Of a stretch of DNA of 64,000 bases, positions 8,156 through 61,694 are shown in pieces. The stretch lies in the IMG/VR virus record IMGVR_UViG_3300019378_000009, positions 32,001 through 96,000 of that record; one strand, 5' to 3'. How positions within the stretch are numbered: position 1 is the first letter of the stretch; each line of letters opens with the position of its first letter. Source of the stretch: a virus (taxonomy: Duplodnaviria; Caudoviricetes). The notes beneath the pieces were generated by a model. That model saw only the letters and a list, made by a program, of their open reading frames with translations. It was not told the DNA's origin and did not search any database. A program made the translations under genes and the position numbers.

Positions 8156-8182
8156 TTTTCAAAATTAGACAGCTTTGGAAGT

Positions 8183-8211
8183 TTGACTTTTATTAAAATT
8201 TATGATATAAT
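8183..8211 (+). promoter_or_regulatory. sigmaA promoter of the replication operon
   Basis: TTGACT-N17-TATAAT with TG. Confidence 0.8.
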
Positions 8212-8307
8212 ATTTATAGAAAAAACACGAGAGATTTGCCCACTCTCTGTGAAATAAAACAAATAAAATAAACAAACAATTTTTAAAATTAAAGGAGAAT
8301 ATTTAAA

Positions 8308-8595
8308 ATGGCAGATATTAAGATTACAGAGAGACCCCTTAGTGAGAACGCAAAAGTTGTTCTTGCTTATTTGAAGGCAAATGACAATGGAGAAGTTGGT
8401 TACTTTGGTAACGAGATTGCAGAGGCTTGTGGTATGAGCCCTGTTGGTATTCAGGGTACCCTTAATTCTCTTGTAAAGAGAGAGCTTGTTGGTAAGGGTC
8501 AGAGAGAGAAGGAATTCTCTAACAAGGCTGGTTCTGGTGTTAAGCCCTATACTACCTACTTCATTACTGATGCAGGTCGCGCTTACGAGGCTTAA
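8308..8595 (+). CDS. winged-helix DNA-binding protein
   Basis: EIAEACGMSPVGIQGTLNSLVKRELV...YFITDAG wHTH pattern; strong SD. Confidence 0.75.
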   Translation: MADIKITERPLSENAKVVLAYLKANDNGEVGYFGNEIAEACGMSPVGIQGTLNSLVKRELVGKGQREKEFSNKAGSGVKPYTTYFITDAGRAYEA

Positions 8596-8734
8596 TTTAA
8601 GCTGTAAGCTACAACAAATTAACTAACTAACTTGTATTGATAAGAATTGGCGCTACGGGCTTAGCGCCTTTTATTTTCAAAATGGGTAAGAATATGAACA
8701 TTACAAGATTTTAATATTTAATGGAGAAAAACAA

Positions 8735-9628
8735 ATGATTAAGAAGAATGATGTATTTATTATCGGTGAAGTTGTAGAAGTAAAGACTGATGTTCGTATT
8801 TCTAGCGAAAACAAAAAGTACATTAGCGGAAAGGTTTCTGTTAAGGTAAACGATAATGGCGTAGAAAATATTATTGATGTTTCTATTTTTGCGTATGAAA
8901 AGACCAAGAATGGAACAGACAATAAATTGTTTAAGTCTTACACTACTCTCGAGAGTATGCTTAATAAGAGAGTTCGTGTAACTGGCTCTCTTGGTGAGGG
9001 CAGCATAGTAGATGAAAGCTCTGGAGATGTAAGACATTTCAATCAGATTAATGGCAAGTTTATTAACCTTGCTTACAATACTGACACAGAAGATAAGGCA
9101 ACATTTGAGTTCTCTGGTTTTGTAACCAGGCCTATTTATGAGCGTAAGGATAAGGAAGACAATCTTCTCGGCTACCGCATCGAGGTTGCTCAGGCAAATT
9201 ACAATGATACCGGTCTGTTTGTTATTCGTTTCGATGTGAATAAGAATGATGTAGATAAAGCTCGTGTTATCGAAGCTAATTATCTTACTAAATCAACCGT
9301 AGAATTTTCTGGAACACTTGGTTCTATTACTTCAGTAGAGACCAAAACTGTTCCCGCAGATTTTGGTGAACCCCTTGTAAAGACTTTTGTTAAGACTGAG
9401 AAGACTTATACTATTCAGTCTGGCACCAATCCTCTCGCAGAAGATGATGAAAATGCATATAGTGAAGAGATGATTAAGAAGCTCGTTGCCGCATATAAGC
9501 AGGCAGACGCAGAGAGAGTAGAAAAGGCAAGAAATGCAGCAACTGAAACTGCATCTGTTCCTACTATGAATGCTGCAGCAGCCGCTATGGGCGCTATTAC
9601 TCGTAGCGCAACAGCTTCTCTTATATAA
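8735..9628 (+). CDS. ssb: single-stranded DNA-binding protein (tandem OB-fold-like)
   Basis: Two OB-like beta repeats (VFIIGEV...VRVTGSL; FEFSGFV...VEFSGTL); lies next to the Sak4-like ATPase. Confidence 0.6.
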   Translation: MIKKNDVFIIGEVVEVKTDVRISSENKKYISGKVSVKVNDNGVENIIDVSIFAYEKTKNGTDNKLFKSYTTLESMLNKRVRVTGSLGEGSIVDESSGDVRHFNQINGKFINLAYNTDTEDKATFEFSGFVTRPIYERKDKEDNLLGYRIEVAQANYNDTGLFVIRFDVNKNDVDKARVIEANYLTKSTVEFSGTLGSITSVETKTVPADFGEPLVKTFVKTEKTYTIQSGTNPLAEDDENAYSEEMIKKLVAAYKQADAERVEKARNAATETASVPTMNAAAAAMGAITRSATASLI

Positions 9629-9641
9629 GAGGTGAACGGGT

Positions 9642-10646
9642 ATGGCAATCAATCTTGATGATGTAAAACCTAATGTGGTTACTGCCGACCCTGTGAGTAA
9701 AATTTGGTTGTTTTATGGAGAGATGGGCACAAGAAAGACTTCTGTAGCTTGTGCCTTCCCCAACCATTTGCTTATCGCTTATGATATTGGATATAAGTTT
9801 ATTAATGGCGCTAATGCTCTTCCAGTACAGAACTGGAATGATTTTAAGAGTGTTACAAAGCAGTTAGATTTACAAAAGAATAAAGATAGATTTTCTACCG
9901 TTATTATTGATACTGCCGGTAAGTGTTATCAAGCTTGTTACAAGTATATGTGTAACCAGATGGGAGTTAGTGATCCCACAGAAGCAGGTAAGTATGGTAT
10001 TGGTTGGAAGAAAATTCGTGATGAATTTGAAACCACTATCTATTCTATTGCACAAAAAGGTTATGGTGTAATTCTTCTTGCTCATTCAGATGAGGTGGAA
10101 AAGGAAGATTCTACAACAAAACAGAAATATATCCAAACAAAAATTGATACAGATAGACGACCAGAAATTATCATAAAACAGATGTCAGACTTTGTGTTTT
10201 ATTTGCACAAAGAAATAAAACCAGAAACAAATGAGCCTACAGTATATGCTTACACCAACTTGGTTCAAATTGATACAAAAACGCGTAGCCGTTATTTCTC
10301 ACCCAAATTTGAGTTTACATATGAAAATTTGTGTGCCGAACTAGAAAATGCGGTGGCAAAGCAGTACGAAATGGAGAATTTGGCACGTCCTGAAAACTAT
10401 GTAGAAATAAATCCTTATGTTAAAGAAGCGGTTAATTTTGCAGAATTAAAAGCAAAAGTAATTAGTTTGGCACAAGATTTGCTGGGTTGTGGAAATATTT
10501 CAGCTGAAAATGATACAACCACATTGCTATCTAATATGTTTAAGGGAGTGCCCGTCAGTCAGGTGGAAGAATCACCCGCAATGATAGAAACCCTACAAGT
10601 TGCTTGTACCTCTCTTGAGGAAATAAAGGAGCGTTATAGTGTGTGA
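9642..10646 (+). CDS. Sak4-like / AAA_24 ATPase (ssDNA-annealing recombinase)
   Basis: FYGEMGTRKT P-loop, VIIDT Walker B, YGIGW, VILLAHS. Confidence 0.75.
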   Translation: MAINLDDVKPNVVTADPVSKIWLFYGEMGTRKTSVACAFPNHLLIAYDIGYKFINGANALPVQNWNDFKSVTKQLDLQKNKDRFSTVIIDTAGKCYQACYKYMCNQMGVSDPTEAGKYGIGWKKIRDEFETTIYSIAQKGYGVILLAHSDEVEKEDSTTKQKYIQTKIDTDRRPEIIIKQMSDFVFYLHKEIKPETNEPTVYAYTNLVQIDTKTRSRYFSPKFEFTYENLCAELENAVAKQYEMENLARPENYVEINPYVKEAVNFAELKAKVISLAQDLLGCGNISAENDTTTLLSNMFKGVPVSQVEESPAMIETLQVACTSLEEIKERYSV

Positions 10647-48551: not shown

Positions 48552-48923
48552 TTCTGGAGAATAGGTAATTTGGAAATAGAAATGCAGAATGGATTTAAGA
48601 ATGTTGGAATTGGATTTTGGTTACATGTTGAGATTGGATTTTTCGTTTCATACGATCTTTTTTCCACAACAGGCCCGGGTTGTTCATAATTTCGTAATAT
48701 TTGTCTAACACTCCCCCCCCGTCGTTATGCACAAAAAAAGAGCATACCCGGGCATACTTTTGTGCATATTGCCTAAAGTTTGTTAAAATTTTAACATTAT
48801 TCATATTTGATGCTTTTGTGCATATTGTACAAAAAATTTATTCTTTTTTCTACATAGAAAGTATTGACAAAGATAAAAATATATGGTAAAATAGGGTAGA
48901 AAATAAATCAAGGAGCTTTTCAA

Positions 48924-49328
48924 ATGGATACATTAATACTTGCAAAAATCGACCGTTTTTATGCAAATAACGGACAAGAGGCGGAGCGAGTTTTCCGCTA
49001 CACTTACACGGGCAAGCTTACAAAAGCCGATAACATTAAGCACACCGACGGCGCCGACTGCGACGACATTCAAATCAAGAGCGCGAGAGCAAGCGTCTGC
49101 AAGGGCACAGATATCAATGCATATCTCTCAAATGACAAAGCAAGCCGTTTTGCTTATGTTGTCAAGGATATGAGCATAGCCTACATAATGACAAAGGCAC
49201 TATATATTGAGTTTGTAAATGCTTTCGCTACAATCACAACTGAGAGCGCAAAAAACGGTGGTGCTACAAAGTTAAGGCTTAAAAGCGAAAGCAAGGCGAT
49301 GCTTCAATGGTTAGCGGAGAGGGTGTAA
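48924..49328 (+). CDS. putative PD-(D/E)XK-like nuclease
   Basis: NNGQEAE...GAD...IQIK motif; own promoter and SD; similar to 50433-50915 with the halves in reversed order. Confidence 0.55.
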   Translation: MDTLILAKIDRFYANNGQEAERVFRYTYTGKLTKADNIKHTDGADCDDIQIKSARASVCKGTDINAYLSNDKASRFAYVVKDMSIAYIMTKALYIEFVNAFATITTESAKNGGATKLRLKSESKAMLQWLAERV

Positions 49329-49481
49329 ACCCTCTCCCTTTTGCATTGTTGAAATTTAACGAGCGCGTCCGGGCGCGACCCGGTAACTTGCACAAAAAGT
49401 TGGGGTGCACGCAGTATAAATTTGTGCAAAATTTTTGAGGAAGAGGATTGACTTTTTCAGTGATTTGTGGTATAATATAAG

Positions 49482-49572
49482 TGTCAAGGGGCGAGGGAAA
49501 CCCAAGTTGCAACAGGGTAGTGAACGGAACTTGAAAAAAATTTTTGAAAAATTTTTCAAAAACCCCTTGACA
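49482..49572 (+). ncRNA. ORF-less unit bounded by inverted repeats (candidate sRNA) A
   Basis: Starts just after TATAAT; TGTCAAGGGG...CCCCTTGACA; no SD/ATG ORF. Confidence 0.45.
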
Positions 49573-49599
49573 AATCCACGAAAGTGTGGTATAATATAA

Positions 49600-49857
49600 G
49601 TGTAAGAGGGAAGGACAACAAACTGTACTTGCACCACCGTCACCAAGAGTGTGAGAGCGGAGTGCAAGAGGGGAGAAGTCACCTTGCAAGGCTTCCCTTT
49701 CACAACCGAGGTAATGAGGTCACTCTCCGCAGACTCGCAAAGCCATAAGAGGTGGGAACGCAAGTTGTTCTGTAAGACGAGCCCTCGGTATAGAAATCAG
49801 TAGACCAAAGACAACACTCAACCCTTGAAAGAGTGTGTGGACGGAGCGAGGGTATAT
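49600..49857 (+). ncRNA. structured non-coding RNA / tRNA leader
   Basis: Promoter at 49567, no credible ORF, GC-rich stems (CTTGCAC/GTGCAAG, ACCGAGG/CCTCGGT, ACACTC/GAGTGT). Confidence 0.5.
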
Positions 49858-49962
49858 GAGAGGGTAGCTCAAGGGTAGAGCGGCATCCTGCTAAGATGCG
49901 GCAGACGAGGTCAGTGCACGGACTAGTCCACTGTATGGGTTCGAATCCCATCCCTTTCACCA
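49858..49962 (+). tRNA. atypical tRNA, anticodon GCT (Ser-reading), 35-nt variable region, encoded CCA
   Basis: Acceptor GAGAGGG/CCCTTTC-A-CCA; D arm GCTC-AAGGGTA-GAGC; anticodon arm GCATC-CTGCTAA-GATGC; T arm ATGGG-TTCGAAT-CCCAT. Confidence 0.85.
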
Positions 49963-50090
49963 TAAAGACTTGGCGCGGCCGGTGTCGCGCCGGGCCGCCC
50001 GGGCTGCCGAAAATTTTTTCAGCTTTTTCGCAAAAACACTTGACAAACAAATAGTTTTGTGGTATAATATATACAGAAATAAAGAATGAG

Positions 50091-50282
50091 GTGTCTATTA
50101 TGAAACACGTGGCTTACAATCTTGTCACTCACGAAGTACTTTTTTCCAATCATTCCAATGCTTTAAAGCGCAGAGTTACCCAAATAGAACGTTGGAATAT
50201 AGCTAATGGTTATGGCAAGGGCAAATGGATATTCGCCCACGGCAAGCAGTGTGAATATAAAATTGCTGCCAAGCTCCACTAA
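50091..50282 (+). CDS. hypothetical cassette protein
   Basis: Own promoter at 50040 and GAGG SD (start at 50091 or 50100). Confidence 0.65.
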   Translation: MSIMKHVAYNLVTHEVLFSNHSNALKRRVTQIERWNIANGYGKGKWIFAHGKQCEYKIAAKLH

Positions 50283-50432
50283 AAAGGAGCTAGCGCCCGG
50301 GCGGCCGACTGGGATTGTTAAATTTTTCACAAACAAGCAAGTGGGAAAATTTTAAAAAATTTTTAAAAAAGAGCTTGACAAATCAAAGCTTTTGTGATAT
50401 AATATACTTGTAAGAAAGAGAGGATACAACCA

Positions 50433-50915
50433 ATGTATAGACTTGATAGAATGAGAAAACAATACGAACAATTCACTGCCGCAGAGGGTTACATCATCGG
50501 CTTCCGTGATGGCGACAAGGTGTATGCGGTAGACCTTGATAAAATACCTCGCAGATACACCAGAATACAAAAGGAAAGCAAGAGCAACGGTGGTGGCTAT
50601 GGCTTGTATGTAAAAATCACCGAACCTGCTATCCTGTCCGAGCTACTGCCGAAAGCCTACTATGTATGCGAGCTTGCCGACCTCATAGACAATGACGGAC
50701 ACCTCAACGGCAAGGGCGAACTCAAACACTTTAACAAAGGTGTTATGTTTGAAAAGAAAATATGGGAACTCAACGGTATGGAGTTCAGGGGCAAGGACAG
50801 TGTAAGATTTTACGAAAGTGGTGATATTACCATTGACGGAAAAGAAATACAAATTAAGTTTGAATGGGCAAGAATTTGTTATGACCGCACACTAAAAAGA
50901 CTGACCGCCAAATAA
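50433..50915 (+). CDS. putative PD-(D/E)XK-like nuclease (circularly permuted relative to 48924)
   Basis: NKGVMFE...SGDITIDGKEIQIK near the C-terminus; own promoter and SD. Confidence 0.6.
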   Translation: MYRLDRMRKQYEQFTAAEGYIIGFRDGDKVYAVDLDKIPRRYTRIQKESKSNGGGYGLYVKITEPAILSELLPKAYYVCELADLIDNDGHLNGKGELKHFNKGVMFEKKIWELNGMEFRGKDSVRFYESGDITIDGKEIQIKFEWARICYDRTLKRLTAK

Positions 50916-51020
50916 GGCGGCCGGTCCCGGCCCGGGCGGCCGTTCATAATTTATTTACATTTGAGGGGTTGACTTTTCCCTCTCGGTGTGATATAATATA
51001 TAGAAAGTGAGGACACGAAT

Positions 51021-51164
51021 ATGTTGCAAAAGAATATAGAAAAACAAGAGCGAAAAAATCGCAAAACTTGGCAGGGATATTTCACTCGCAAGACACCAAC
51101 CAAGAAAGAAAAAGAAGAAAAAAATCGTAAAAAATACAAAAAAGGTATTGACAAAGACGATTGA
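51021..51164 (+). CDS. small highly basic protein (47 aa)
   Basis: Promoter at 50969, GAGG SD, MLQKNIEKQERKNRKTWQGYFTRKTPTKKEKEEKNRKKYKKGIDKDD. Confidence 0.6.
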   Translation: MLQKNIEKQERKNRKTWQGYFTRKTPTKKEKEEKNRKKYKKGIDKDD

Positions 51165-51211
51165 ATGTGTTATAATATATATGTAAGAAAAAGAAAGACG
51201 AGGTAATCAAA

Positions 51212-51466
51212 ATGGAAACCACTTACAGTGTAGAAGCAAAGTGCGATAAGACAAGCGGAATGAATGTCGAGTTCAAGGGCATTGACAATTTGGAAAGTGC
51301 GATGGCGTGTGTAACCACTCTTGAGTTGGCATTTCCAAATATCACCGTCATTTGTGAACAGACGGGCGAAATAATGTATCACCGTTTGATGTCGTTTGAG
51401 ATTTTCAATCCCAGTATGGAAATGGGTAAGGCAATCTTCAAGGCAGAGTGTGATATGTACTTTTAA
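51212..51466 (+). CDS. hypothetical cassette protein
   Basis: Promoter at 51148, GAGGT SD, downstream hairpin. Confidence 0.7.
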   Translation: METTYSVEAKCDKTSGMNVEFKGIDNLESAMACVTTLELAFPNITVICEQTGEIMYHRLMSFEIFNPSMEMGKAIFKAECDMYF

Positions 51467-51644
51467 AGGACAAGGCGCGAATCGGTAGTTATATCGGTTC
51501 GCGCCAAACACATTCTTCTCGGTTAGCATATGCTAACTCGTGCCCGGGCGCTTTGTGCACTTTGTACATATTTGGGGCGAAAACTTTTTTATTTTTGTGT
51601 AATTTGACGATTGACTTTTCACTCATTATATGATATAATATTAG

Positions 51645-51745
51645 TGTCAAGAGGGGAAGGGGTATAAACGGTCGCCACTTGCAAGCCTTCCATTGATAAA
51701 GGTGCCGAAAAATTTTTTGAAAAATTTTTCAAAAACCTCTTGACA
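51645..51745 (+). ncRNA. ORF-less unit bounded by inverted repeats (candidate sRNA) B
   Basis: TGTCAAGAGG...CCTCTTGACA following the promoter at 51611. Confidence 0.45.
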
Positions 51746-51773
51746 AACCATAAGTTTTGTGGTATAATATAAA

Positions 51774-51886
51774 TGTCAAGGGGCGGTGTTAAGCAACCGA
51801 GAAGGACACACATAAGCGCAATCGTGTTTGATGAAGTCGGGACTGCCGAAAAAATTTTTGAAAAACTTTTCAAAAACCCCTTGACA
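51774..51886 (+). ncRNA. ORF-less unit bounded by inverted repeats (candidate sRNA) C
   Basis: TGTCAAGGGG...CCCCTTGACA following the promoter at 51740. Confidence 0.45.
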
Positions 51887-51968
51887 AATCACCAAAAGTG
51901 TGATATAATATAAATGTAAATAAGGAGAGCCGACACTCCATTAACAAACGGAGAAAAGGAAGAAAAAT

Positions 51969-52298
51969 ATGGCAACTATCGCATTTATCAACGAAAACGG
52001 AAATGTATCGGCAAAGGTTCGTGAGCGTCTTAAGTCGCAGACTATGACCGCTATCACAAAGGCTATGGACAAGTGCAACCTTGAAACCATAGTCAATGCA
52101 GACAAGGGCTTGTCTATCCCTCTCGGCACTGACAAGACCAACGGTAACCCCATTTACGCACACATCTCGGTTGTGATTTCACAACACAACCCTGCGGAAA
52201 AGACCGCAAAGACCAAGACCAAGACCAAGAAAAAGGTCGCAGACGAGGTCGCTCTCCCCGACATTTTCGGGGCAGTAGACGAGGGTGAGGGAGAGTAA
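51969..52298 (+). CDS. hypothetical protein, paralog family B
   Basis: Paralog of 60154-60504 (F.NE.GNVSAK.R...VNAD.GLSI...LPDIF); Lys-rich tail. Confidence 0.75.
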   Translation: MATIAFINENGNVSAKVRERLKSQTMTAITKAMDKCNLETIVNADKGLSIPLGTDKTNGNPIYAHISVVISQHNPAEKTAKTKTKTKKKVADEVALPDIFGAVDEGEGE

Positions 52299-52443
52299 TC
52301 TCCCTCTCACAAACACCTGTCCGCCATTGGCGGACGGCGCCCGGGCGGCCGGAATTGTGAACAAATTGTTAACTTTTATAAAACTATTGACAAATCAAAA
52401 CAAATGCGATATAATATTAGTGTAAGAAAGAGAGGAAAACAAT

Positions 52444-52683
52444 ATGACAATTAAAGAGTTGCCACTTATTTATAATGTTGATAAGGTTGTAGTGTATAAT
52501 AAAAGAGGTCTTGTATCTTCCTTTTGGAGAAACTCACAATTTAGTCTTGCCGAGCAAGTCGAATATAACCGCACACAGTTAATCGGTGCAGAAAATGTTC
52601 TTAATGAAAAAATTGAGTCAATGAGTATTGGTGTATCGGGTATTGCCGACAATGTGATAACTTTAGAAATTTATTTAAAATAA
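52444..52683 (+). CDS. hypothetical cassette protein
   Basis: Promoter at 52387, GAGG SD. Confidence 0.7.
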   Translation: MTIKELPLIYNVDKVVVYNKRGLVSSFWRNSQFSLAEQVEYNRTQLIGAENVLNEKIESMSIGVSGIADNVITLEIYLK

Positions 52684-52755
52684 ATTTTCCAAAACCCCTT
52701 GACAAATCGGTTTGTTTGTGATATAATATAGGTGTAAGAAAGAGAGGTAACAACT

Positions 52756-53004
52756 ATGATTTCAAGAAAAGAAGCCGAAAGAACTACTGATGCATACTAC
52801 GAGGTTGAAAGAGTACTTGGAGAGGTTGACGATATGATGCTCACCAAAGAAGAAATCTATGCAAGATTTCCGTGTGATTGCGATGGAGTGCCATACATCA
52901 CCATCTCCGCTTTTGAAAATGCTCTCCGCAACCTAATGCATATGCGACACATAGACAGTGTATGCGTAAGGGGTGTTCGCCACTACGGAGCCGTCAGAAG
53001 ATGA
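52756..53004 (+). CDS. small winged-helix-like protein
   Basis: LTKEEIY...ITISAFENALRNL......G...Y; promoter at 52699. Confidence 0.6.
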   Translation: MISRKEAERTTDAYYEVERVLGEVDDMMLTKEEIYARFPCDCDGVPYITISAFENALRNLMHMRHIDSVCVRGVRHYGAVRR

Positions 53005-53141
53005 CGGCTTGGCGGCCCGGGCGCTTTGTGCACTTTGTACACTTTTCCCCGAAAAATTAGTGCATTTTTGTGCAACTTGCCATATTGACAAATGCGGAAA
53101 AATGTGATATAATTATAGTACCAAAGGAAAGAGAGGAACAT

Positions 53142-53594
53142 ATGATGCTTGGAAACACCATTCTTGCACTCAACGACATCAAGGAACTTGAAGTCAAAAT
53201 CTCCGACACCAAGAACGGAGAATGTATCCACCAAACCCAACGAAACGGCATAGGTGCGAAACTCCGTGAAGCACTTGCCAACGATTTCTTGCAGATTTTT
53301 CCCTACTCGGAAAATGCAGAGGACATCGTGGCTTATGTAACGGACGACGGGCTTGTGCTTGAAATTCCCAACCAAAGCGTCAAAGACGGCATTTCCAATG
53401 TGAACGGCAGTGGCGCAATCACTGTGGAACTCGGCTTTACGGTTAAGAACTTGGAATACAATGCACAAGACGAAAGCGAAAGCCACAAGGTCAAGGTTGC
53501 CGAAAAAGAAGCCAAAGCAAAGGAACTTGCCGAAAAGAAGGCAAAGAAAATTGCGAAAGACAATGCGGCTCGCAAGAAGGCAAAGGGAGAGTAA
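53142..53594 (+). CDS. hypothetical protein, paralog family A
   Basis: Paralog of 56707 and 61200 (DG..LE.PN.SV.D.I.N..GSGAI..E..FT.K.LEYNA.D); SD-supported ATG at 53142. Confidence 0.8.
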   Translation: MMLGNTILALNDIKELEVKISDTKNGECIHQTQRNGIGAKLREALANDFLQIFPYSENAEDIVAYVTDDGLVLEIPNQSVKDGISNVNGSGAITVELGFTVKNLEYNAQDESESHKVKVAEKEAKAKELAEKKAKKIAKDNAARKKAKGE

Positions 53595-53734
53595 TCTCCC
53601 TCGCCAAGCCGACCAAATGTAAAGTTTGGTTGGCGCGGCGCCCGGGCCGTTCATAATTTATTTACAATTTAGGTATTGACAAGTCAGTTATTTTATGATA
53701 TAATATATACATCAAGAGAAAGAAGGATAATAAT

Positions 53735-53983
53735 ATGAAATTTCAGCAAATCAGTAGAAGCAAAAGACACGCCAAATTTTATGACGCTTGCACAGGGGAA
53801 ATCTTTTTCGCAAAAGGTTTCACTTATATGAAAACCGATGATAATGATATGGTTAATGCCGTTCAATTAGACGGTATTGAGAGGGGAGAATTAACATTCT
53901 TTGAAGAAGGTGAAGATATTGACATTCTCAAAAGCGAAGTCGTTATCAACTACGAAGCAAACGAGGTGTTGTCGTGGATTTAA
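53735..53983 (+). CDS. hypothetical cassette protein
   Basis: Promoter at 53676, AAGGA SD. Confidence 0.7.
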   Translation: MKFQQISRSKRHAKFYDACTGEIFFAKGFTYMKTDDNDMVNAVQLDGIERGELTFFEEGEDIDILKSEVVINYEANEVLSWI

Positions 53984-54105
53984 CGGAATGCCAACTTTTG
54001 TTGGCACGCCCGGGCGGACGTTCACAAATTGTTTACAATTTGGATATTGACAAATCGTTTTATTTGTGATATAATATATACACAAGGAAAAAGGAGATAA
54101 ACAAA

Positions 54106-54408
54106 ATGAAAGTAAATCTTATGGTAAATTGGGAAGAAAAGGAAATTCTCACTGTCCAGGAACTTGACGAACGCATTGATGCGAGAGTTGACAAGGTGAT
54201 GCTGGACGCCGATGCTTATGACGAGCATCTTGATGACTATATTGACTGTAACTATACCAAGAGAGAACTCTTTGATGCTTTGTCTGGTAGCGATGCAGAG
54301 AGAGAAAGGGTACTTTCCGACATTCGTTCAGGAGTTGGCGAGAGCATTTACGATTGGGTGAATATGGATATCAGTGGCAATTTCCACGATGTAACCATAG
54401 AGGTCTAA
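54106..54408 (+). CDS. acidic hypothetical cassette protein
   Basis: Promoter at 54047, AAGGAG SD; D/E-rich. Confidence 0.7.
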   Translation: MKVNLMVNWEEKEILTVQELDERIDARVDKVMLDADAYDEHLDDYIDCNYTKRELFDALSGSDAERERVLSDIRSGVGESIYDWVNMDISGNFHDVTIEV

Positions 54409-54603
54409 CAAACAAGGCGCGAACTCAAAAAGTTGGGTTCGCGCTTTCTACATAAAATAGATTGTTAAATATTTAACAAGGGCGTGCCCGGGCGGTTCAT
54501 CGTTTTGCACAAAATGAAGTGTCAAACAAATAAAAACTTTGTGCAATATTACTACTTGACTTTCTCATTATTTTATGGTATAATTAGTATGTAAGAAAGA
54601 GAG

Positions 54604-54888
54604 GTGATTGTTATATTACTTGCAACAATGTGGAACTCAATCAAAGATATATTTCAACCGATATACTGTAAGACTTGTAAGTCAAAGCATTACGCGACAA
54701 TCGGTTTCATATGGCACTTATGGAGAAAACACGGTATCAAAATCACAAGGCGAGATTTTAAGTTTTTGGCAAAGTATAACTTAATAACAAGGTTAGTTGT
54801 CGGTGTGTTGTGTGCCGTGTTCTTTGTTCCATTGCTCGTGTTAAAGTTTATCTTGCTTCCGTTGTATTACTTATACAAAATTTTATAA
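54604..54888 (+). CDS. C2H2-like Zn finger plus transmembrane segment
   Basis: CKTC...HLWRKH followed by a hydrophobic C-terminus. Confidence 0.6.
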   Translation: MIVILLATMWNSIKDIFQPIYCKTCKSKHYATIGFIWHLWRKHGIKITRRDFKFLAKYNLITRLVVGVLCAVFFVPLLVLKFILLPLYYLYKIL

Positions 54889-54901
54889 AGGAGAATAAAA
54901 A

Positions 54902-55114
54902 ATGATTACAGTAGAAGTTACCGCAGAAGTCTTATATACTTGCGAACTCACCGCAGAGGACGAAGAAAAGGTAAAGGCATTTGCCGAAGAAAATGATGTT
55001 GAGTTGGCGGTTGCCGTTGGGGAACTCTATTCAGTAGGAGAAATCAATTTATACAAAAATTCCGTTGAAAGCGATTTCAGTACCGAAAGAATTGATGACG
55101 CATACGAAGAGTGA
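54902..55114 (+). CDS. very acidic small protein
   Basis: AAGGAG SD; E/D-rich. Confidence 0.7.
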   Translation: MITVEVTAEVLYTCELTAEDEEKVKAFAEENDVELAVAVGELYSVGEINLYKNSVESDFSTERIDDAYEE

Positions 55115-55266
55115 GTTAGCATATGCTAACTCGCCCGGGCGCATTGTGCATACTGCACAACATATAAGGCGCGGATTGTAAAAAGTTTGTGTATATTGCC
55201 ATATTGACTTTTGGTTTATTATATGATATAATAAGAATGTAAAAAGGAAGAAACGAGGTAAACAAA

Positions 55267-55764
55267 ATGAATTGGTTTGAATTTTCTTTGAGCGGTTTCC
55301 TTGCCGTATTTATCGTGCTTAATATTGTCAATGTAATTATCCAAACTGTCAAGTCTATTGCTACTATCAAGTGCAGTGCTTGGGCGGCAGCAGGTGTTAA
55401 TGCACTTGCCTATGGTTTATATACCATCGTGGTGGTATATATGAACGCAGACGGACTTGGTCTGTTTTGGAAAGCAATAATTATAGGTGTTGCCAACTTG
55501 CTCGGTGTGTATGTTGTCAAAGTTATTGAGCAGAAGAAAAGAAAAGATAAACTTTGGAAAGTTGAAGCAACCGTTGACCGCACCTCTATTACTCGCTTGG
55601 ATAATAACCTTGACGAAGCACACATACCCCATAACTATGTAGTTGCAGGCAAATACGGAATTTTTAATTGCTACTGTGCAACCCAAAAGGAAAGCCTTGT
55701 AGTAAAAGAAATTTTGGATATGTATGGTGCAAAATATTTTGCAAGTGAGAGTAAACCCCTCTAA
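55267..55764 (+). CDS. membrane protein (UPF0316/DUF5698-like)
   Basis: Three hydrophobic helices followed by a soluble C-terminal domain. Confidence 0.6.
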   Translation: MNWFEFSLSGFLAVFIVLNIVNVIIQTVKSIATIKCSAWAAAGVNALAYGLYTIVVVYMNADGLGLFWKAIIIGVANLLGVYVVKVIEQKKRKDKLWKVEATVDRTSITRLDNNLDEAHIPHNYVVAGKYGIFNCYCATQKESLVVKEILDMYGAKYFASESKPL

Positions 55765-55908
55765 ACGAGGGGCTAGCGCCCGGGCGGTTCGTCATTTTGC
55801 ACAATAAACAAATAAGAAATTAAAAAATGTTTGTGCAATATGCCATATTGACTTTTCCATTTGTTTGTGATATAATATATATGTAAGTGAAAGAAAGGAA
55901 CCACTCCA

Positions 55909-56550
55909 ATGATAGTAATTATGTTTGACACCGAAACCACCAACGAAATTGATTGCCCTTTTTGTTACGATTTTGGCTTCTCCGTCCTCGACACCGACAA
56001 GCAAAAAATTCTTGAAAAGCACTCCTATGTTGTAGCAGATATTTTTTGCGACAAATCGCTTATGGCTTCCGCCTATTTTGCAGATAAGATACCGCAATAT
56101 TGGGAAGATATTAAAAGCGGAAAAAGAATGCTCCGCAAATGGTCAACCATTAAAGCAATAGTCAGAGAGGTAATGGCACAATATAACATTGATACCGTAA
56201 TTGCCCATAATGCTCGCTTTGACTACTGTTCAACCGCCACTACGCAAAGATACCTCACCTACTCTAAATACAGATACTTTTTCCCTTATGGCACGAAATT
56301 TGTTTGCACTCTCAAAATGTCAAGAGAGGTATTTGGTAAAGACGAAAATTATATTGCTTTTTGCGAAGAAAATAATTACCTCACCACCTATAACAAACCT
56401 CGCTTTACTGCCGAAATAATTTACCGCTTTCTCACCAACAACACCGATTTTGTTGAAAGCCATACGGGGCTTGAAGATGTGGAAATTGAAACGGAAATTT
56501 ATCTTGAATGTATAAAGAGAATGCCCTCGGTTGACGGACTGCTTTGGTAA
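55909..56550 (+). CDS. DEDDh-family 3'-5' exonuclease
   Basis: FDTETT, AHNARFD, HTGLED. Confidence 0.85.
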   Translation: MIVIMFDTETTNEIDCPFCYDFGFSVLDTDKQKILEKHSYVVADIFCDKSLMASAYFADKIPQYWEDIKSGKRMLRKWSTIKAIVREVMAQYNIDTVIAHNARFDYCSTATTQRYLTYSKYRYFFPYGTKFVCTLKMSREVFGKDENYIAFCEENNYLTTYNKPRFTAEIIYRFLTNNTDFVESHTGLEDVEIETEIYLECIKRMPSVDGLLW

Positions 56551-56706
56551 GTGGTCCGCCAATGGCGGACAGCGCCCGGGCGTTTGTGCACCTTGCACAA
56601 AAACACCGCCCAAAACTTACAAAAATTTGTGCAATATGCCATATTGACTTTTACCCAATTATGTGGTATAATAAGTATGTAAGAAAGAGAAAGAGAGGTA
56701 ACAACT

Positions 56707-57180
56707 ATGCCCAACTTTATTAACACCAACACCGCCCTCAATGCCCTTAAAGGTACTACCGTTAAGGTAAGTCAGACCAAGAATGGCGAGGCTATCCACC
56801 AGACTATGCGAAATAAAATCGGTGCGGTACTGCGTGAGGCTCTTTTTGCAGACCTTAAAGAGATTTTCCCCACCTCTACCAACCCCGAAGATATCGTAGC
56901 ATACCTCACCGCAGACGGAATTATTCTCGAGATTCCTAACGAGAGTGTAAAAGACACTATCACCAATGTAAACGGTAGCGGTGCAATAAGCCTTGAAATC
57001 GGCTTTACTGTTAAAAATCTTGAATACAACGCACAGGACAGTGCAGAGGCATACGAGGTAGACAGAGCCGAAAAAGAGGCGAAAGCCAAAGCCAAAGAAG
57101 AGGCAAAGGCGAAGAAAATCGCCAAAGACGAGGCAGACCGCAAAGCCAAAGCCAAAGCAAAGGCGGAAAAGGGGGCATAG
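56707..57180 (+). CDS. hypothetical protein, paralog family A
   Basis: Close paralog of 53142; K/A/E-rich tail. Confidence 0.8.
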   Translation: MPNFINTNTALNALKGTTVKVSQTKNGEAIHQTMRNKIGAVLREALFADLKEIFPTSTNPEDIVAYLTADGIILEIPNESVKDTITNVNGSGAISLEIGFTVKNLEYNAQDSAEAYEVDRAEKEAKAKAKEEAKAKKIAKDEADRKAKAKAKAEKGA

Positions 57181-57333
57181 TCCCTCTTTTCTTTTGCGGA
57201 AGATTGTTAAAAATTTAACAAGCCGGCCCGGGCCGCGTTCATAAAAAATTCATAAATAAATTTTGAAAAAACTATTGACAAATTGACTTGTTTATGATAT
57301 AATATATACACAAAGGAAAAGGGAGAAAAGAAA

Positions 57334-57651
57334 ATGATTGAAAAAGAATTTGACTTAACCACTCTCACAGATGAAGAACTTGCCGATTTTCATACGGCAT
57401 GGGTAAACGAAGCAAAACGAAGAGATAAACAACGCAGACGAAATGCCGCATTGCTCTTATACGAGGCGGTAGGTCAATTCATTGACACTATGGCGCACTA
57501 TGACTTTGTAAAGTTGGTATCAATGGAGTTTGTCAATGAAGAGGGCGAGGATTGTGAGTTTGATATCAATGTTTTCGGTGAAGAGGTACTTACCAACATT
57601 CGTGAAACTTTGCGGTTAGAGATAGGTCAGTATAGCGGAGAGGACGAGTAA
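57334..57651 (+). CDS. acidic hypothetical cassette protein
   Basis: Promoter at 57275, GGGAG SD. Confidence 0.7.
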   Translation: MIEKEFDLTTLTDEELADFHTAWVNEAKRRDKQRRRNAALLLYEAVGQFIDTMAHYDFVKLVSMEFVNEEGEDCEFDINVFGEEVLTNIRETLRLEIGQYSGEDE

Positions 57652-57818
57652 TCGTCCTTTTCGGCATTTAATTTGTGGCAAAAGTTCTGCCCGGGCATTC
57701 GTCATTTTGCACAAAAATCAGTTCGCGCGGTGTGAAAAGTTTGTGCATTTTGACTATTGACTTTTTACTGATTATGTGGTATAATATGTATGTAAGTAAG
57801 AGAGAGGAGAACATCAAA

Positions 57819-57974
57819 ATGACTTGCCATTATACCGTCAAAGACCTTATTGAATATCTTGAAACCTTACCCAAAGATACCGAACTTAAAATTGAGAGAG
57901 CAAGCGGCAATCTCACGGACGGCTTCGACCTTGAATACGAGGACGGCAACCTTATCCTCTGCAATGCTTATTAA
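57819..57974 (+). CDS. small hypothetical protein
   Basis: GAGGAG SD, ATG at 57819; TVKDLIEYLETLPKD motif common in small phage proteins. Confidence 0.65.
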   Translation: MTCHYTVKDLIEYLETLPKDTELKIERASGNLTDGFDLEYEDGNLILCNAY

Positions 57975-57990
57975 AGAAGGGAGAACGAAA

Positions 57991-58194
57991 ATGATGTATG
58001 TATATCTTGTTTATGAAGAGTGCCACGGTTTGGTAATGGTCTGTGGCTCTGAAATGGGAGCAATCAACAAGGTTAATAGCCTCGCCCCTAACTATGGCAT
58101 TGACCCCGAAACAACACCGCTTGACTATAACTCCCATCACCATTATGGTTGGGAAGGTGCGGTATATTTTGTGAAAGAGGTGGTATTTGACTAA
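57991..58194 (+). CDS. small hypothetical protein
   Basis: GGGAG SD, ATG at 57991 (MMYVYLVYEE...). Confidence 0.6.
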   Translation: MMYVYLVYEECHGLVMVCGSEMGAINKVNSLAPNYGIDPETTPLDYNSHHHYGWEGAVYFVKEVVFD

Positions 58195-58433
58195 TGATAG
58201 TAACAAAATATGAACATCTAATAGACGGCTCTGAATATGACGAAGAAGATGTCAGAGATGTCGCGGCGGAACATATCACGTGGGATAACTTGAACGAGGC
58301 GTTAGACGATTTTGATTTTCATTGGTTGTGGCAACATTTAACCCAAGAGGGACAAATGGAACTATATGACAAAGCAATTGAAACCTACCAAGAAGAATAT
58401 TTTTCCGCCATTGAAGTAGAAGAGGACGAGTAA
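58194..58433 (+). CDS. very acidic small protein
   Basis: TAATG coupling to the previous gene; D/E-rich. Confidence 0.65.
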   Translation: MIVTKYEHLIDGSEYDEEDVRDVAAEHITWDNLNEALDDFDFHWLWQHLTQEGQMELYDKAIETYQEEYFSAIEVEEDE

Positions 58434-58921
58434 ATCGTCCTTTTTCTTTTATCAAAATACAAAAGATAATCCATGGCAGAAATCGTGCCCGGGCTAACAT
58501 GCGCCCGGGCCGCAAATTTGAACAAATCAAGTCTATTTTATTAACAAATTGTAAACTTTTCAATCAGAAGCAACACCTCCCTTCCACAGCTGTACACCGG
58601 ATATCCCATTACCGTTACATGCCTCCCGAGTAATAAACCACCGGTAATAAGCAGCTATAAGCAGCAGCAGCACCACCTGTCCTTTGCCCATAAGCAGCAG
58701 CACAAATTTGACATAATTATTCAAATCCACGAAAAAGCAGCTACAAGAAGCTGCAAAAATTTGAATTTTTATACGATTTATGATATAATATTTATAGAAA
58801 AAGAGGAAAAACAAGAAAAAATTACAAGCATTTCTGGAATATTTACGCATCGCCGCAGTAGGTGATAAAATAATGAATATGTAGATCTGGATATAATTAT
58901 TACGAAAGGGGAAGCAAGAGA

Positions 58922-59167
58922 GTGAAAAATCTGAAAGAGTGGTTTGAAGAGCAGAGTCTATGGATATGCATACTAGGCATTGTAATCTGTCTAATAGTTT
59001 TAGCAGGTTGCATCTTTGGTTGCGCAGCTGTTTTTATGCTGTTGTGGAACTATGCAATAGTTGCAGCGCTGACTATAGCTATGCCTATTGGTTACTGGCA
59101 CGCAGTGTGTATGGTAATTATACCGGCGTTCATATGTTTGCCTGTTGTACGTAAAAATATAAAATAA
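58922..59167 (+). CDS. small membrane protein
   Basis: Hydrophobic; LLWNYA...IGYWHA motif; terminator at ~59182-59210. Confidence 0.6.
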   Translation: MKNLKEWFEEQSLWICILGIVICLIVLAGCIFGCAAVFMLLWNYAIVAALTIAMPIGYWHAVCMVIIPAFICLPVVRKNIK

Positions 59168-59662
59168 GCAGTAGCAGCAGCAAGAGAGGGCTAGTTCCCT
59201 CTCTTTTTTTTGTTGCGGCGACGGGCGTAAATTTGATTTTATTTGTCAAAAGCAGGAGCAGCAGAAAAACAGGCCCACACGTTTTCTTGCTTTTCGCCGC
59301 AAACTGTGATATAATATTAGTACAGAAGCAGGAAAACAAGAGAGAAGAAATTGCTACCAAATTGCATGCGGAAAATTTTTGTTGGATACTTGTTCAGAAC
59401 AGAGAATTTCCATCATAAATTGCCGTTATTTTGGTGATTTTTTGGACGCTTTTTAAAGGTTATGGCTTCTCTTTTTCCAACCTGTTGTTTGCGGGCAAGG
59501 ATGCTCTGGCGCAAAATTGACTTTAAAATTCAAATTTGTGCTCGACAGCATTTTTCGCCGCAAACAATCTACACAAAGCCAAAAATACATTCAGCCGCAC
59601 ATTTGCTTTTTCCCGCAATCTATGATATAATTATTATAGAAAAGAGGAAAGGAAAAAGAATA

Positions 59663-61199: not shown

Positions 61200-61694
61200 A
61201 TGAAACTTACACTTGTCGAAAAAATGTTGCAGGAAATTATGGGTCTTGATATTCCTATTTCTAATACTACTCGTGGAGAACAAATTCAGCAAACTTTCCG
61301 CAATAAGTTAACTGCTCAGCTCAAGGAAGCACTGTTTGAAGATTGTATGGAAGCATTTCCTGCCTCAAAAGAGAATGGAATAATTCCCTATCTTACAAAA
61401 GATGGAGTTATTTTGGAATTGCCCAATGGAAGCGTTGCGGACGGAATTACCAATGATATTGGAAGTGGAGCAATTTCTATTGAGATGAAATTTACCATCA
61501 AGGGCTTGGAATATAATGCTGCCGATGAAAGCGAAGACTATGATTTGCACTTGCTTGAAAAGCAGAAAAAAGCAGAAGAAGCCGAAAAGAAAAAGGCAGA
61601 TAAGATTGCAAGAGACCGTAAAGCAAGAGAAGCAAGAGAACTCAAAAGAGCTAAAATGCTTGAAGCAGCAGGAAGATTTACAGAAGAGGACTAA
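61200..61694 (+). CDS. hypothetical protein, paralog family A
   Basis: Paralog of 53142 and 56707. Confidence 0.8.
   Translation: MKLTLVEKMLQEIMGLDIPISNTTRGEQIQQTFRNKLTAQLKEALFEDCMEAFPASKENGIIPYLTKDGVILELPNGSVADGITNDIGSGAISIEMKFTIKGLEYNAADESEDYDLHLLEKQKKAEEAEKKKADKIARDRKAREARELKRAKMLEAAGRFTEED

Follow-up and report, generated by a model that had tools for sequence, protein, structure and literature searches.

An exact palindromic octamer at the joints of early mini-operons in a clade of uncultured phages

Within the 64,000-nucleotide window analyzed here (positions 32,001 to 96,000 of IMG/VR record IMGVR_UViG_3300019378_000009), one eight-base palindrome, GCCCGGGC, recurs between the small genes of a single block. 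This raises the question of whether the word is a recombination site, a docking site for a protein or an element of transcription. The original prediction had proposed an integron-like system of cassette capture and shuffling or, alternatively, an array of protein-bound sites. The block has the look of an immediate-early region of the host-takeover type, in an uncultured phage of ~109 kb whose promoters and ribosome sites are consistent with a Firmicutes-type host. The phage encodes an SPbeta-like DNA polymerase (closest cultured match, the SPbeta polymerase at 39%), a very long tape measure protein and, among recombination genes, Sak4/AAA_24 (a Sak4-type annealase), a RecJ-like exonuclease, a RuvC-like resolvase and a ligase. 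The lack of a visible tyrosine or serine recombinase, noted originally for the window, holds for the complete genome, and the lack of a detectable integrase points to a lytic lifestyle.

Distribution of the octamer

Exact GCCCGGGC copies number 16, all between window positions 49997 and 58510, versus a mean of 0.10 and a maximum of 1 in dinucleotide-preserving shuffles; a scan of the complete 109,428-bp record found none outside the block. One-mismatch copies number five genome-wide, three at the left edge of the array and two, at 10774 and 46590, without the CCGGG core. The genome has 19 CCCGGG hexamers, 18 of them inside the early block. The site counts confirm the initial tally of 16 exact octamers plus three variants in 10 kb, all intergenic, lying in spacers between promoter-gene-hairpin units.

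Sites (no strand assigned):
48673..48680, degenerate site GCCCGGGT (left edge), within the divergent spacer adjoining the minus-strand structural block; CCCGGG core and GTTCATAATTT-type right flank retained
48746..48753, degenerate site ACCCGGGC, one mismatch to GCCCGGGC
49367..49374, degenerate site GTCCGGGC, one mismatch to GCCCGGGC
49997..50004, GCCCGGGC site 1
50295..50302, GCCCGGGC site 2
50930..50937, GCCCGGGC site 3
51542..51549, GCCCGGGC site 4, perfect palindrome GTTAGCATATGCTAAC just before
52339..52346, GCCCGGGC site 5, GTCCGCCATTGGCGGAC just before
53015..53022, GCCCGGGC site 6
53640..53647, GCCCGGGC site 7
54008..54015, GCCCGGGC site 8
54486..54493, GCCCGGGC site 9, TTGTTAAATATTTAACAA just before
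55133..55140, GCCCGGGC site 10, GAGTTAGCATATGCTAACTC just before
55778..55785, GCCCGGGC site 11
56574..56581, GCCCGGGC site 12, GTCCGCCAATGGCGGAC just before
57226..57233, GCCCGGGC site 13, TTGTTAAAAATTTAACAA just before
57689..57696, GCCCGGGC site 14
58487..58510, terminal doublet of sites 15 and 16 (58487, 58503) with an 8-nt spacer, closing the array

The terminal doublet, also predicted at the outset, was confirmed; it folds into a hairpin whose 8 bp are all GC. Doublets with 16–49 bp spacing recur in relatives, several of them, as read off position lists, being the last sites of their arrays.

Organization of the early units

The early block is a row of ~16 self-contained mini-operons separated by GCCCGGGC. 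Upstream hairpins or palindromes are followed by the octamer, operator-like repeats, a promoter, a Shine–Dalgarno sequence and one to three small genes or an RNA. Except for two close pairs of sites, every inter-site interval holds one to three promoters with one to three Shine–Dalgarno-led open reading frames (ORFs) or a tRNA. The promoters match TTGAC[AT]-17-TA[TA]AAT; in all, 21 near-consensus sigma-70-type promoters were located on the plus strand, with scores of 11–12 of 12 and a spacer of always 17 nt. Canonical T-tract terminators occur at some unit ends only; at the other ends stand one or two structures, hairpins or perfect palindromes, with no run of T. The uniform unit grammar claimed earlier therefore stands for promoter, Shine–Dalgarno sequence and ORF or RNA, and its closing hairpin is a T-tract terminator in some units only.

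Units (promoters by the position of the −35 element):
48754..49366, plus, unit 0: promoter 48864; c01 48924–49328 (134 aa); T-tract terminator 49316–49337
49375..49996, plus, unit 1, RNA only: tandem promoters 49448 and 49567; ~260-nt leader; tRNA 49858–49959
50005..50294, plus, unit 2: promoter 50040; c02 50100–50282 (60 aa, basic, ORFan)
50303..50929, plus, unit 3: promoter 50375; c03 50433–50915 (160 aa)
50938..51541, plus, unit 4: promoters 50969 and 51148; c04 51021–51164 (47 aa, very basic); c05 51212–51466 (84 aa, acidic)
51550..52338, plus, unit 5: tandem promoters 51611, 51740 and 51881, the first two followed by short stretches without an ORF; c06 51969–52298 (109 aa)
52347..53014, plus, unit 6: promoters 52387 and 52699; c07 52444–52683; c08 52756–53004
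53023..53639, plus, unit 7: promoter 53085; c09 53142–53594 (150 aa), paralogue of c16
53648..54007, plus, unit 8: promoter 53676; c10 53735–53983 (82 aa, acidic)
54016..54485, plus, unit 9: promoter 54047; c11 54106–54408 (100 aa, acidic)
54494..55132, plus, unit 10: promoter 54556; c12 54604–54888 (hydrophobic); c13 54902–55114 (acidic)
55141..55777, plus, unit 11: promoter 55204; c14 55267–55764 (165 aa, hydrophobic)
55786..56573, plus, unit 12: promoter 55848; c15 55909–56550 (213 aa), DnaQ-like exonuclease
56582..57225, plus, unit 13: promoter 56644; c16 56707–57180 (157 aa), paralogue of c09
57234..57688, plus, unit 14: promoter 57275; c17 57334–57651 (105 aa, acidic); terminator 57636–57663
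57697..58486, plus, unit 15: promoter 57757; c18 57819–57974; c19 57991–58194; c20 58194–58433; terminator 58419–58445

The array proteins are mostly ORFans, and homologues in 80 viral relatives were found for six of 26 query proteins (20 array ORFs and six downstream). Homologues of c14 occur in 34 related loci, and c15, which matches phrog_20187 (E 1e-32) and phrog_192, is by construction of the search the sole cassette common to all related loci. Paralogs and a tRNA, both anticipated, are present: c09 and c16 share 68% identity (E 7e-54), with a third copy outside the array at 61200–61694, and the tRNA at 49858–49959 matches the Rfam tRNA model (56.1 bits, E 3.8e-10). ARAGORN misses this tRNA, which has a 32-nt insertion in the variable region and, read by eye, a GCU anticodon loop. 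The c01 product is a probable PD-(D/E)XK nuclease, with invariant E, D and K residues, a model of pLDDT 92, an Atlas lead to PDDEXK_16 and top fold matches that consist almost entirely of type II restriction endonucleases (NhoI, Z 5.8; HhaI, 5.5; HinP1I, 5.0; MspI, 4.3), although Z values below 8 lie in the range of common arrangements. Its distant homologue c03 (hhalign 95.7%, E 1e-8) has invariant E107, D131, Q140 and K142, and its model gave no fold match with Z > 2.5. A gene of the c01/c03 family lies inside the array or at its edge in all six complete genomes examined.

Arrays in related phages

Across a deep phage clade, GCCCGGGC marks unit joints in the same slot. Four other complete genomes confine it to one block, with 12, 9, 11 and 7 copies, each within 5–12 kb, and phages with core-protein identities of only 25–45% still share it. 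In a sister group, a second exact palindrome, GGCCGGCC, occupies the same slot and is likewise confined to one block in a 181-kb genome. The site type also switched within a shallow clade, where one locus with GGCCGGCC (L050) branches inside a group of GCCCGGGC phages (support 100%). The slot upstream of the exonuclease gene holds 42 exact octamers and 20 one-mismatch copies in relatives, so individual sites decay and are not essential. We found no published description of these palindrome arrays in the literature.

Junctions between relatives

Inside arrays, the comparison yielded 147 distinct intergenic homology ends, of which 30 fall ≤3 bp from the far edge of an octamer, versus 2.8 expected (binomial p ~5e-22); these ends represent not 30 independent events but ~8 distinct ones with at least two junction ends at an octamer, and BLAST extension may shift a nearby true breakpoint onto the conserved word. 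Control motifs gave no comparable excess (TTGAC[AT], 3 versus 5.0 expected; TATAAT, 10 versus 6.1), and about four-fifths (~80%) of intergenic breakpoints lie away from the octamer. Two indels are clean: one of 1.82 kb (L033 versus L028) with GCCCGGGCGC on both sides, and one of 403 bp (L108 versus L029) with octamers on both sides. No inverted cassettes were found among ~160 related loci, though the palindromic site has no direction, and no cassette-sized segment with octamers at both ends had moved between unrelated contexts. An identity of 8–10 bp is very short for homology-driven exchange, and a site-cutting nuclease would be a simpler account of junction precision.

Judged by these junctions, the comparison of relatives shows the octamer as the most favored single point of crossover at which cassettes are inserted, deleted or replaced. 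The few genes that relatives share mostly keep their order. What survives of the proposed capture and shuffling is a set of autonomous, palindrome-bounded units with gain, loss and replacement at the octamer far above chance.

Comparison with known systems

The integron-like capture system itself was not supported. Like an integron, the array is a one-directional row of short cassettes with a recurrent palindromic site between them, and its indels leave one site behind, as circle excision would. Unlike an integron, it has no IntI or any other tyrosine or serine recombinase, no attI and no common promoter Pc; every unit has its own promoter whereas integron cassettes are promoterless, and the site is an 8-bp perfect palindrome rather than a folded attC of 57–141 nt. 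The missing inversions and the predominance of breakpoints elsewhere also speak against it.

Host-takeover modules of similar layout are known from Bacillus phage SPO1, in its terminal redundancy, and from T5, as the pre-early region in the terminal repeat. Like the present block, they span ~10 kb and are made up of numerous short operons, every one with a very strong host-sigma promoter, small ORFan genes and a terminator; they are expressed first, as the present genes probably are. We know of no invariant palindromic joint described in them. The REP/BIME elements of enterobacteria are, as here, GC-rich extragenic palindromes located where transcription units end, but REPs are imperfect palindromes of 20–40 nt, spread chromosome-wide and mobilized by RAYT transposases. 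The array also resembles the ‘linker sequences’ that Susskind and Botstein reportedly put forward, short conserved boundary sequences that would guide module exchange in phage evolution.

Closest in kind are the promoter-early stem-loop (PeSL) cassettes in hyperplastic regions of T4-type phages (Arbiol et al. 2010, PMC2839356; Comeau et al. 2014, PMC4122927). Both systems combine dense rows of strong sigma-70-like early promoters with GC-rich stem-loops in a plastic, ORFan-rich region; the elements flank indels and replacements between close relatives, a dedicated recombinase is absent and each moved gene is accompanied by a promoter and terminator of its own. The present phage belongs to another lineage, as its SPbeta-like polymerase and very long tape measure protein indicate. 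PeSL homology extends over ~100 bp, with exchange proposed in the AT-rich part (PMC2839356; PMC4122927), whereas here one exact GC palindrome of 8–10 bp, not the promoter hexamers, is the favored junction, and GGCCGGCC substitutes for it in the sister lineage.

Candidate functions of the palindrome

We lean, by a little over even odds, towards cassettes of the PeSL kind in which the palindrome probably serves as a protein docking site or boundary mark and, besides, as a crossover point by short homology. The protein-bound site array of the original prediction is plausible and fits several results. Most likely, the octamer would be read as double-stranded DNA by a sequence-specific, probably dimeric protein; no octamer-binding protein was identified. 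We infer such a reader because the octamer lies mostly in little-transcribed spacer 3′ of terminators, has no constant RNA pairing role (in 15 RNA folds it paired with varying partners or stayed open), loses symmetry after 8–10 bp and was swapped for GGCCGGCC in the sister lineage. No dyad symmetry extends beyond the octamer, and flanking bias is limited to positions −2, −1, +1 and +2. Its likely role would be to mark boundaries or co-regulate early promoters. The broad octamer-to-promoter distance (20–70 nt) argues against a classical fixed-position activator; octamer-to-(−35) distances show a weak periodicity of 10–10.5 bp, with a p-value inflated by the non-independence of related sequences. 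Crossovers may resolve at the octamer by annealing or short-homology recombination because it is the only contiguous GC-rich identity common to all spacers, driven by the phage annealase, RecJ-like exonuclease and RuvC-like resolvase, or by host enzymes, with no dedicated integrase.

It is unlikely that a phage enzyme of unrecognized kind, with the small PD-(D/E)XK-type c01 and c03 as candidates, instead cleaves or recombines the palindrome and actively moves promoter-bearing cassettes. Junctions 0–2 bp from the octamer, the two octamer-flanked indels and a roughly tenfold breakpoint enrichment that is absent at promoter motifs would suit such cut-and-join, but the genome has no tyrosine or serine recombinase, inversions are absent despite the lack of polarity, 80% of intergenic breakpoints are off the octamer and no octamer-bounded cassette was found transferred between unrelated contexts. 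The two site variants, with a shallow-clade switch, suggest a co-evolving reader. For c01, the invariant residues, confident model, restriction-endonuclease-like matches, PDDEXK_16 lead and constant placement of its family in or beside the array (6/6 genomes) favor the role; against it stand the low fold Z values, c03 homologues in relatives with 0–1 octamers (L154, L153) and the fact that an early-block nuclease could equally degrade host DNA. If true, this reading would make the array the phage analogue of an integron, but one that lacks an integrase.

We also doubt that the palindrome is part of a terminator or attenuator hairpin, or a GC clamp insulating neighboring strong promoters, and owes its conservation to that role, with recombination incidental. 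The octamer does lie always between one unit's end and the next promoter, many units lack a T-tract terminator, the terminal doublet forms a GC hairpin, doublets recur in relatives, and PeSL stem-loops, often poly-G then poly-C, act as terminators (PMC2839356). However, an 8-bp palindrome that has no loop cannot form a hairpin by itself, pairing is inconstant across the 15 folds, and the octamer lies downstream of canonical T-tract terminators where these are present. Nor would a stem or clamp need an exact word conserved across phages with 25–45% identical core proteins, or explain the clean switch to GGCCGGCC.

Very improbable is a restriction-modification link, in which a restriction or methylation enzyme of host or phage would act on the octamers and so drive recombination or regulation. 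GCCCGGGC (presumably a SrfI-, SmaI- or XmaI-type target) and GGCCGGCC (FseI-type) both belong to the classic type II sites of 8 bp centered on CCGG, close relatives differ in site type, much as restriction specificities differ, an amino-methyltransferase gene is present and several 4-bp palindromes are avoided (observed/expected, GGCC 0.37, GATC 0.43), but phages normally shed restriction targets and here 16 copies sit among probably first-expressed genes, CCGG is only mildly under-represented (0.63), and neither a C5-cytosine methyltransferase nor a cognate endonuclease was found.

For the favored docking or boundary mark, SPbeta offers a precedent in SPBRE, the repeated operator of its master repressor MrpR (Kohm et al. 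2023, PMC10516654). SPBRE is also a short repeated element, present in ~10 early-gene promoter regions; it is a 15-bp motif of a temperate phage, bound by a recombinase-fold repressor (PMC10516654), whereas the present phage has an 8-bp GC palindrome at variable promoter distance, no detected PF00589-type protein and no integrase. By this example, a word repeated between the genes of such phages can be the docking site of a repressor.

An exact palindrome between putative early-gene units

The 8-bp GC palindrome GCCCGGGC (the octamer) occurs 16 times in the window, every copy lying within 49997-58510. Dinucleotide-preserving shuffles gave a mean of 0.10 copies and a maximum of 1, and the complete 109,428-bp record contains no further copy outside the array. 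Five one-mismatch octamers were found genome-wide, three of them at the left edge of the array with the CCGGG core retained, and of the genome's 19 CCCGGG hexamers, 18 fall in the array block. The original prediction had described an intergenic array of 16 exact sites and three variants, with no exact copy seen elsewhere in the window, and had proposed a genome-wide enrichment count; counts, shuffles and the full record bear out that description.

Features of the array and its surroundings (window coordinates)
48673, 48746 and 49367: one-mismatch octamers at the left edge of the array
48924-49328: c01, array ORF, candidate nuclease
49448-49857 and 51611-51880: four near-consensus promoters preceding ORF-free stretches of ~60-260 nt
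49858-49959: tRNA
49997-58510: the 16 exact octamers
50433-50915: c03, array ORF
54500-54560, 55145-55205, 55790-55850, 56585-56645 and 57700-57760: facing repeat pairs downstream of octamers
58560-59300: promoter region right after the terminal octamer doublet

Except for two close pairs of sites, each interval holds one to three promoters together with one to three ORFs preceded by Shine-Dalgarno (SD) sequences, or a tRNA. A promoter scan identified 21 plus-strand promoters scoring 11-12 of 12 (12 perfect). Every one has a 17-nt spacer, and almost every one a TG extension. Most octamers are preceded by hairpins or perfect palindromes, the latter varying between units. Textbook T-tract terminators end only some units, with one or two hairpins or perfect palindromes elsewhere; this is the one correction to the repeated unit plan described earlier. 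The paralogous cargo noted earlier is represented by the ORFs c09 and c16 (68% identity), with a third copy outside the array, and the doubled site noted at the array's end was the only one to form a clean 8-bp GC hairpin among the folded spacers.

Genome context

The record is complete at 109,428 bp, and a 123-bp overlap of its ends indicates a circular assembly.

Selected proteins encoded in the window
Type II topoisomerase, both subunits
DnaB-like helicase, primase and RecJ-like exonuclease
Polymerase III alpha-type enzyme, 1309 aa; best cultured matches, YorL polymerases of SPbeta-group Bacillus phages (39%)
Ligase, Sak4-type (AAA_24) annealing protein, RuvC-like resolvase and amino-methyltransferase
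Tape measure protein, 1919 aa, within a long minus-strand block

The array begins at a divergent junction with this minus-strand block, which we take to be structural genes. As the sequence had first suggested, no tyrosine or serine recombinase is apparent: PF00589 gave no candidate at E <= 1 in the complete genome, with positive controls, and whole-genome profile searches detected no serine recombinase. The lack of a detectable integrase points to a lytic lifestyle. Array cargo has almost no family matches, and this ORFan content and the consensus host-type promoters fit an immediate-early, host-takeover-type block, for which early timing would be expected. In size, content and position, the ~10-kb block at 48600-58510 resembles the long terminal repeats of SPO1 and T5, which carry host-takeover genes. 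Should the assembly have collapsed such a repeat, the physical ends of the genome would lie at the edges of the array.

Several 4-bp palindromes are under-represented across the genome (observed/expected: GGCC 0.37, GATC 0.43, ACGT 0.43, CATG 0.45 and CTAG 0.58), consistent with restriction-site avoidance. Outside the window, a tRNA/RNA island contains three free-standing GIY-YIG homing-type endonuclease genes (genome coordinates 2061-2834, 8092-8730 and 9264-10025) with homologues in all five other complete genomes compared.

RNAs and promoter-side elements

The tRNA, alone in the early array, was detected by Rfam (56 bits). Its anticodon loop reads GCU, and a 32-nt insertion in the variable region probably explains why ARAGORN did not call it. 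The ORF-free stretches, for which Rfam gave no family match, start with GTGTCAAG(A/G)GG in three of four cases, the fourth (49567) starting with GTGTAAGAGGG; three continue into an AT-rich GAAAAATTTTTC-type palindrome and the one at 49567 leads to the tRNA. They may represent small RNAs, leaders or decoy promoters.

On the downstream side of five octamers, a TTGCACAA-type repeat lies close to the octamer and is faced, ~45 bp away, by a TTTGTGCAA(T)AT repeat that immediately precedes the -35 hexamer; other units carry GTTCATAATTTATTTACA in their place. These repeats look like at least two operator classes for early promoters. Right after the terminal doublet, octamers cease, -35 hexamers are weaker and AGCAGC/AAGCAGCAGC repeats flank the promoters, which may form another temporal class that has a separate factor site. 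The slot immediately preceding the octamer contains, in several relatives (L042, with 20 boxes in 12 kb, L048, L039, L046, L013 and L050), a Firmicutes LexA-type box, CGAACATATGTTCG, or the looser GAAC-N4-GTTC. Such boxes are absent from the present array, where the same slot holds other perfect 16-18-bp palindromes (GTTAGCATATGCTAAC, GTCCGCCAWTGGCGGAC and TTGTTAAAWATTTAACAA, each twice). Together, these occupants of one slot point to spacer palindromes being operators for proteins, linked in some phages to the host SOS repressor.

Related arrays and a second word

Using the exonuclease cassette (c15) as query, we gathered 80 viral loci and 80 from metagenomes, many of which contain GCCCGGGC arrays (as many as 18 copies in 20 kb, or 13 in 7.6 kb). 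When the array itself was compared by megablast with 50,697 phage records, nothing matched. Four further complete genomes, of 116-140 kb, have 12, 9, 11 and 7 copies, confined in each case to one block of 5-12 kb. Their core proteins are just 25-45% identical in amino-acid sequence to those of the present phage, and the octamer is therefore an old and maintained mark. In a more distant set, a counterpart palindrome, GGCCGGCC, fills the same slot after the gene-end hairpin, the commonest distance to the -35 hexamer being 22 nt. CCCGGG-type arrays fill one large clade in the exonuclease tree, which also places L050, a GGCCGGCC phage, inside a group of GCCCGGGC phages with full support. The word can therefore change between phages that are rather closely related. 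Three further GC palindromes apparently enriched in some relatives, GCGGCCGC, GGCGCGCC and CCGATCGG, were dropped as analogues because most copies lie in coding sequence.

The 80 viral relatives share only 6 of 26 query proteins (20 array ORFs and six downstream), mostly in the same order across loci. Cargo turnover between relatives is almost complete.

Exchange junctions at the octamer

The original prediction proposed cassette capture and shuffling and suggested examining gain and loss breakpoints in relatives. We compared all loci against each other at >=88% identity and recorded internal homology-block ends in array spacers, collapsing identical contexts. Thirty of 147 spacer ends lay <=3 bp from the far edge of the octamer, where a uniform spread of ends over those spacers would give 2.8 (p about 5e-22, although ends are not independent events), and eight distinct events had at least two junction ends at the octamer. 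The same test on promoter hexamers revealed no excess (-35, 3 versus 5.0 expected; -10, 10 versus 6.1), so the pile-up is not simply alignment extension into a conserved motif. Among the eight events, a 1.82-kb unit present in locus L033 and missing from L028 is flanked on both sides by GCCCGGGCGC, and for a 403-bp unit distinguishing L108 from L029 all four ends lie at distance 0 from the octamer. Chimeric assembly is an unlikely cause because a repeat of 8-10 bp is far below assembler k-mers.

Exchange junctions are strongly enriched at the octamer, which accounts for one fifth of the spacer junctions; the remaining 80% of breakpoints lie away from it. No homology segment was bounded by octamers within 6 bp at both ends in both partners, only five loose cases being found, and for this reason no claim is made that cassettes move freely from one context to another. 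No cassette-sized segment with an octamer at each end was found to have moved into an unrelated context, and there was no inverted cassette at all, although the palindrome has no direction. The observation behind the shuffling proposal is confirmed and its interpretation partly supported: junctions concentrate at a sharply defined joint, but most breakpoints fall elsewhere and the hallmarks of integrons are lacking.

Proposed recognition of the octamer by a protein

RNA folding of 15 spacers gave the octamer no constant partner. Across 434 distinct copies, base bias was confined to positions -2, -1, +1 and +2, with no dyad symmetry beyond the octamer. Its distance to the next -35 hexamer is broad (20-70 nt), with a weak 10-10.5-bp periodicity (Rayleigh p 0.003-0.007, a significance that relatedness among the sequences inflates). 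Upstream of the exonuclease gene, the orthologous slot holds 42 exact and 20 one-mismatch octamers, showing that sites are constrained yet can decay. With no constant RNA partner, broad spacing, the flank bias, site decay and the word swap, reading as double-stranded DNA by a putative compact, sequence-specific protein would fit better than an RNA or purely physical role.

Among six complete genomes, no protein resembling a DNA reader was present in all GCCCGGGC-type genomes and absent from the GGCCGGCC-type one; the candidates were a UvrD-like helicase, a thioredoxin-like protein and a 129-aa unknown, none of them convincing. The phage topoisomerase II was discarded because its gene also occurs in array-less relatives. 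As regards a restriction target, whole-genome profile searches found no C5 methyltransferase; there is one amino-methyltransferase, and c01 is a probable PD-(D/E)XK protein with Z-scores of only 5-5.8.

A candidate nuclease family

The array ORFs c01 and c03 encode distant homologues (hhalign 95.7%, E 1e-8). Both have an E...D...(S/Q)xK core, N-terminal in c01 and C-terminal in c03, and a second shared short motif occurs in the opposite order, which suggests that the two are related by circular permutation. The confident c01 model (pLDDT 92) matched almost exclusively type II restriction endonucleases and their relatives, with modest Z-scores, and a language-model atlas indicated PDDEXK_16; its fold is probably PD-(D/E)XK.

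Best fold matches of the c01 model (Z-score)
NhoI, 5.8
HhaI, 5.5
HinP1I, 5.0
I-Ssp6803I, 4.7
PvuII, 4.4
MspI, 4.3

The c03 model had no fold match above Z 2.5, Foldseek returned nothing for either protein at E <= 0.001, a PDB-sequence profile search with the c01 family gave nothing meaningful, and Pfam and PHROG contain no model for the family.

Each of the six complete genomes checked carries a family member inside its array or next to it, and homologues are likewise found in relatives that have almost no octamers. The protein may be no more than a nuclease acting on host DNA. We consider it unlikely that GCCCGGGC and GGCCGGCC are sites at which a phage nuclease or recombinase, with the c01/c03 family as candidates, cuts and rejoins DNA for integrase-free exchange of host-takeover genes.

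Comparison with known systems

Integrons combine an IntI-type tyrosine recombinase next to the array with promoterless cassettes under a common promoter, and their attC sites, ~57-141 nt in length, are imperfect inverted repeats that have conserved R''/R' cores and fold in single-stranded form. In contrast, the complete genome lacks a PF00589 recombinase, the site is a perfect 8-bp palindrome without conserved or symmetric flanks past 2 nt on each side, and each unit has its own one to three near-consensus promoters. With these three defining features tested and absent, the array is not an integron.

The closest known system is the promoter-early stem-loop (PeSL) cassettes of T4-type phages, which pair strong early promoters with GC-rich stem-loops in ORFan-rich plastic regions; the elements bound indels, and no recombinase is involved (PMC2839356). 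The present array likewise couples strong sigma-70-like early promoters (21) to spacer stem-loops, lies in an ORFan-rich hyperplastic region and shows element-bounded indels and replacements in close relatives. PeSL exchange is proposed to run through ~100 bp of distributed promoter and stem-loop homology, with circular excision products (PMC2839356); junctions here favor an 8-10-bp palindrome over promoter hexamers, with 80% elsewhere in spacers. The array further differs in its phage lineage, in having a single exact palindrome as favored junction and in the second word of its sister lineage.

A repeated intergenic word also serves SPbeta, a polymerase-related phage, as SPBRE, the operator of the repressor MrpR (PMC10516654). 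Motif, lifestyle and, apparently, cognate protein differ from the present case; no PF00589 match to such a recombinase-fold repressor was found, although a divergent fold could escape that profile. Our literature search found no paper on either octamer in phages. The array is a variant of phage regulatory-cassette architecture, new in its exact-palindrome joint.

Significance for phage biology

The array bears on how phages replace host-takeover genes so fast. To our knowledge, PeSL cassettes are the only worked example of such rapid turnover, and there the homology is diffuse. Here, a large, deeply diverged clade of uncultured phages has kept a single 8-base word unchanged where its early-gene units join, and exchanges concentrate there. 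If a protein reads the octamer, early transcription in phages would gain a new regulator or boundary factor; if the octamer is cut, the machinery would be a new type of gene shuffling, and large uncultured phages would own a built-in, integrase-free means of acquiring and exchanging promoter-bearing host-takeover genes. Either way, the octamer provides a precise experimental handle and a simple sequence tag for locating, in metagenomes, the sets of early genes that such phages direct against their hosts.
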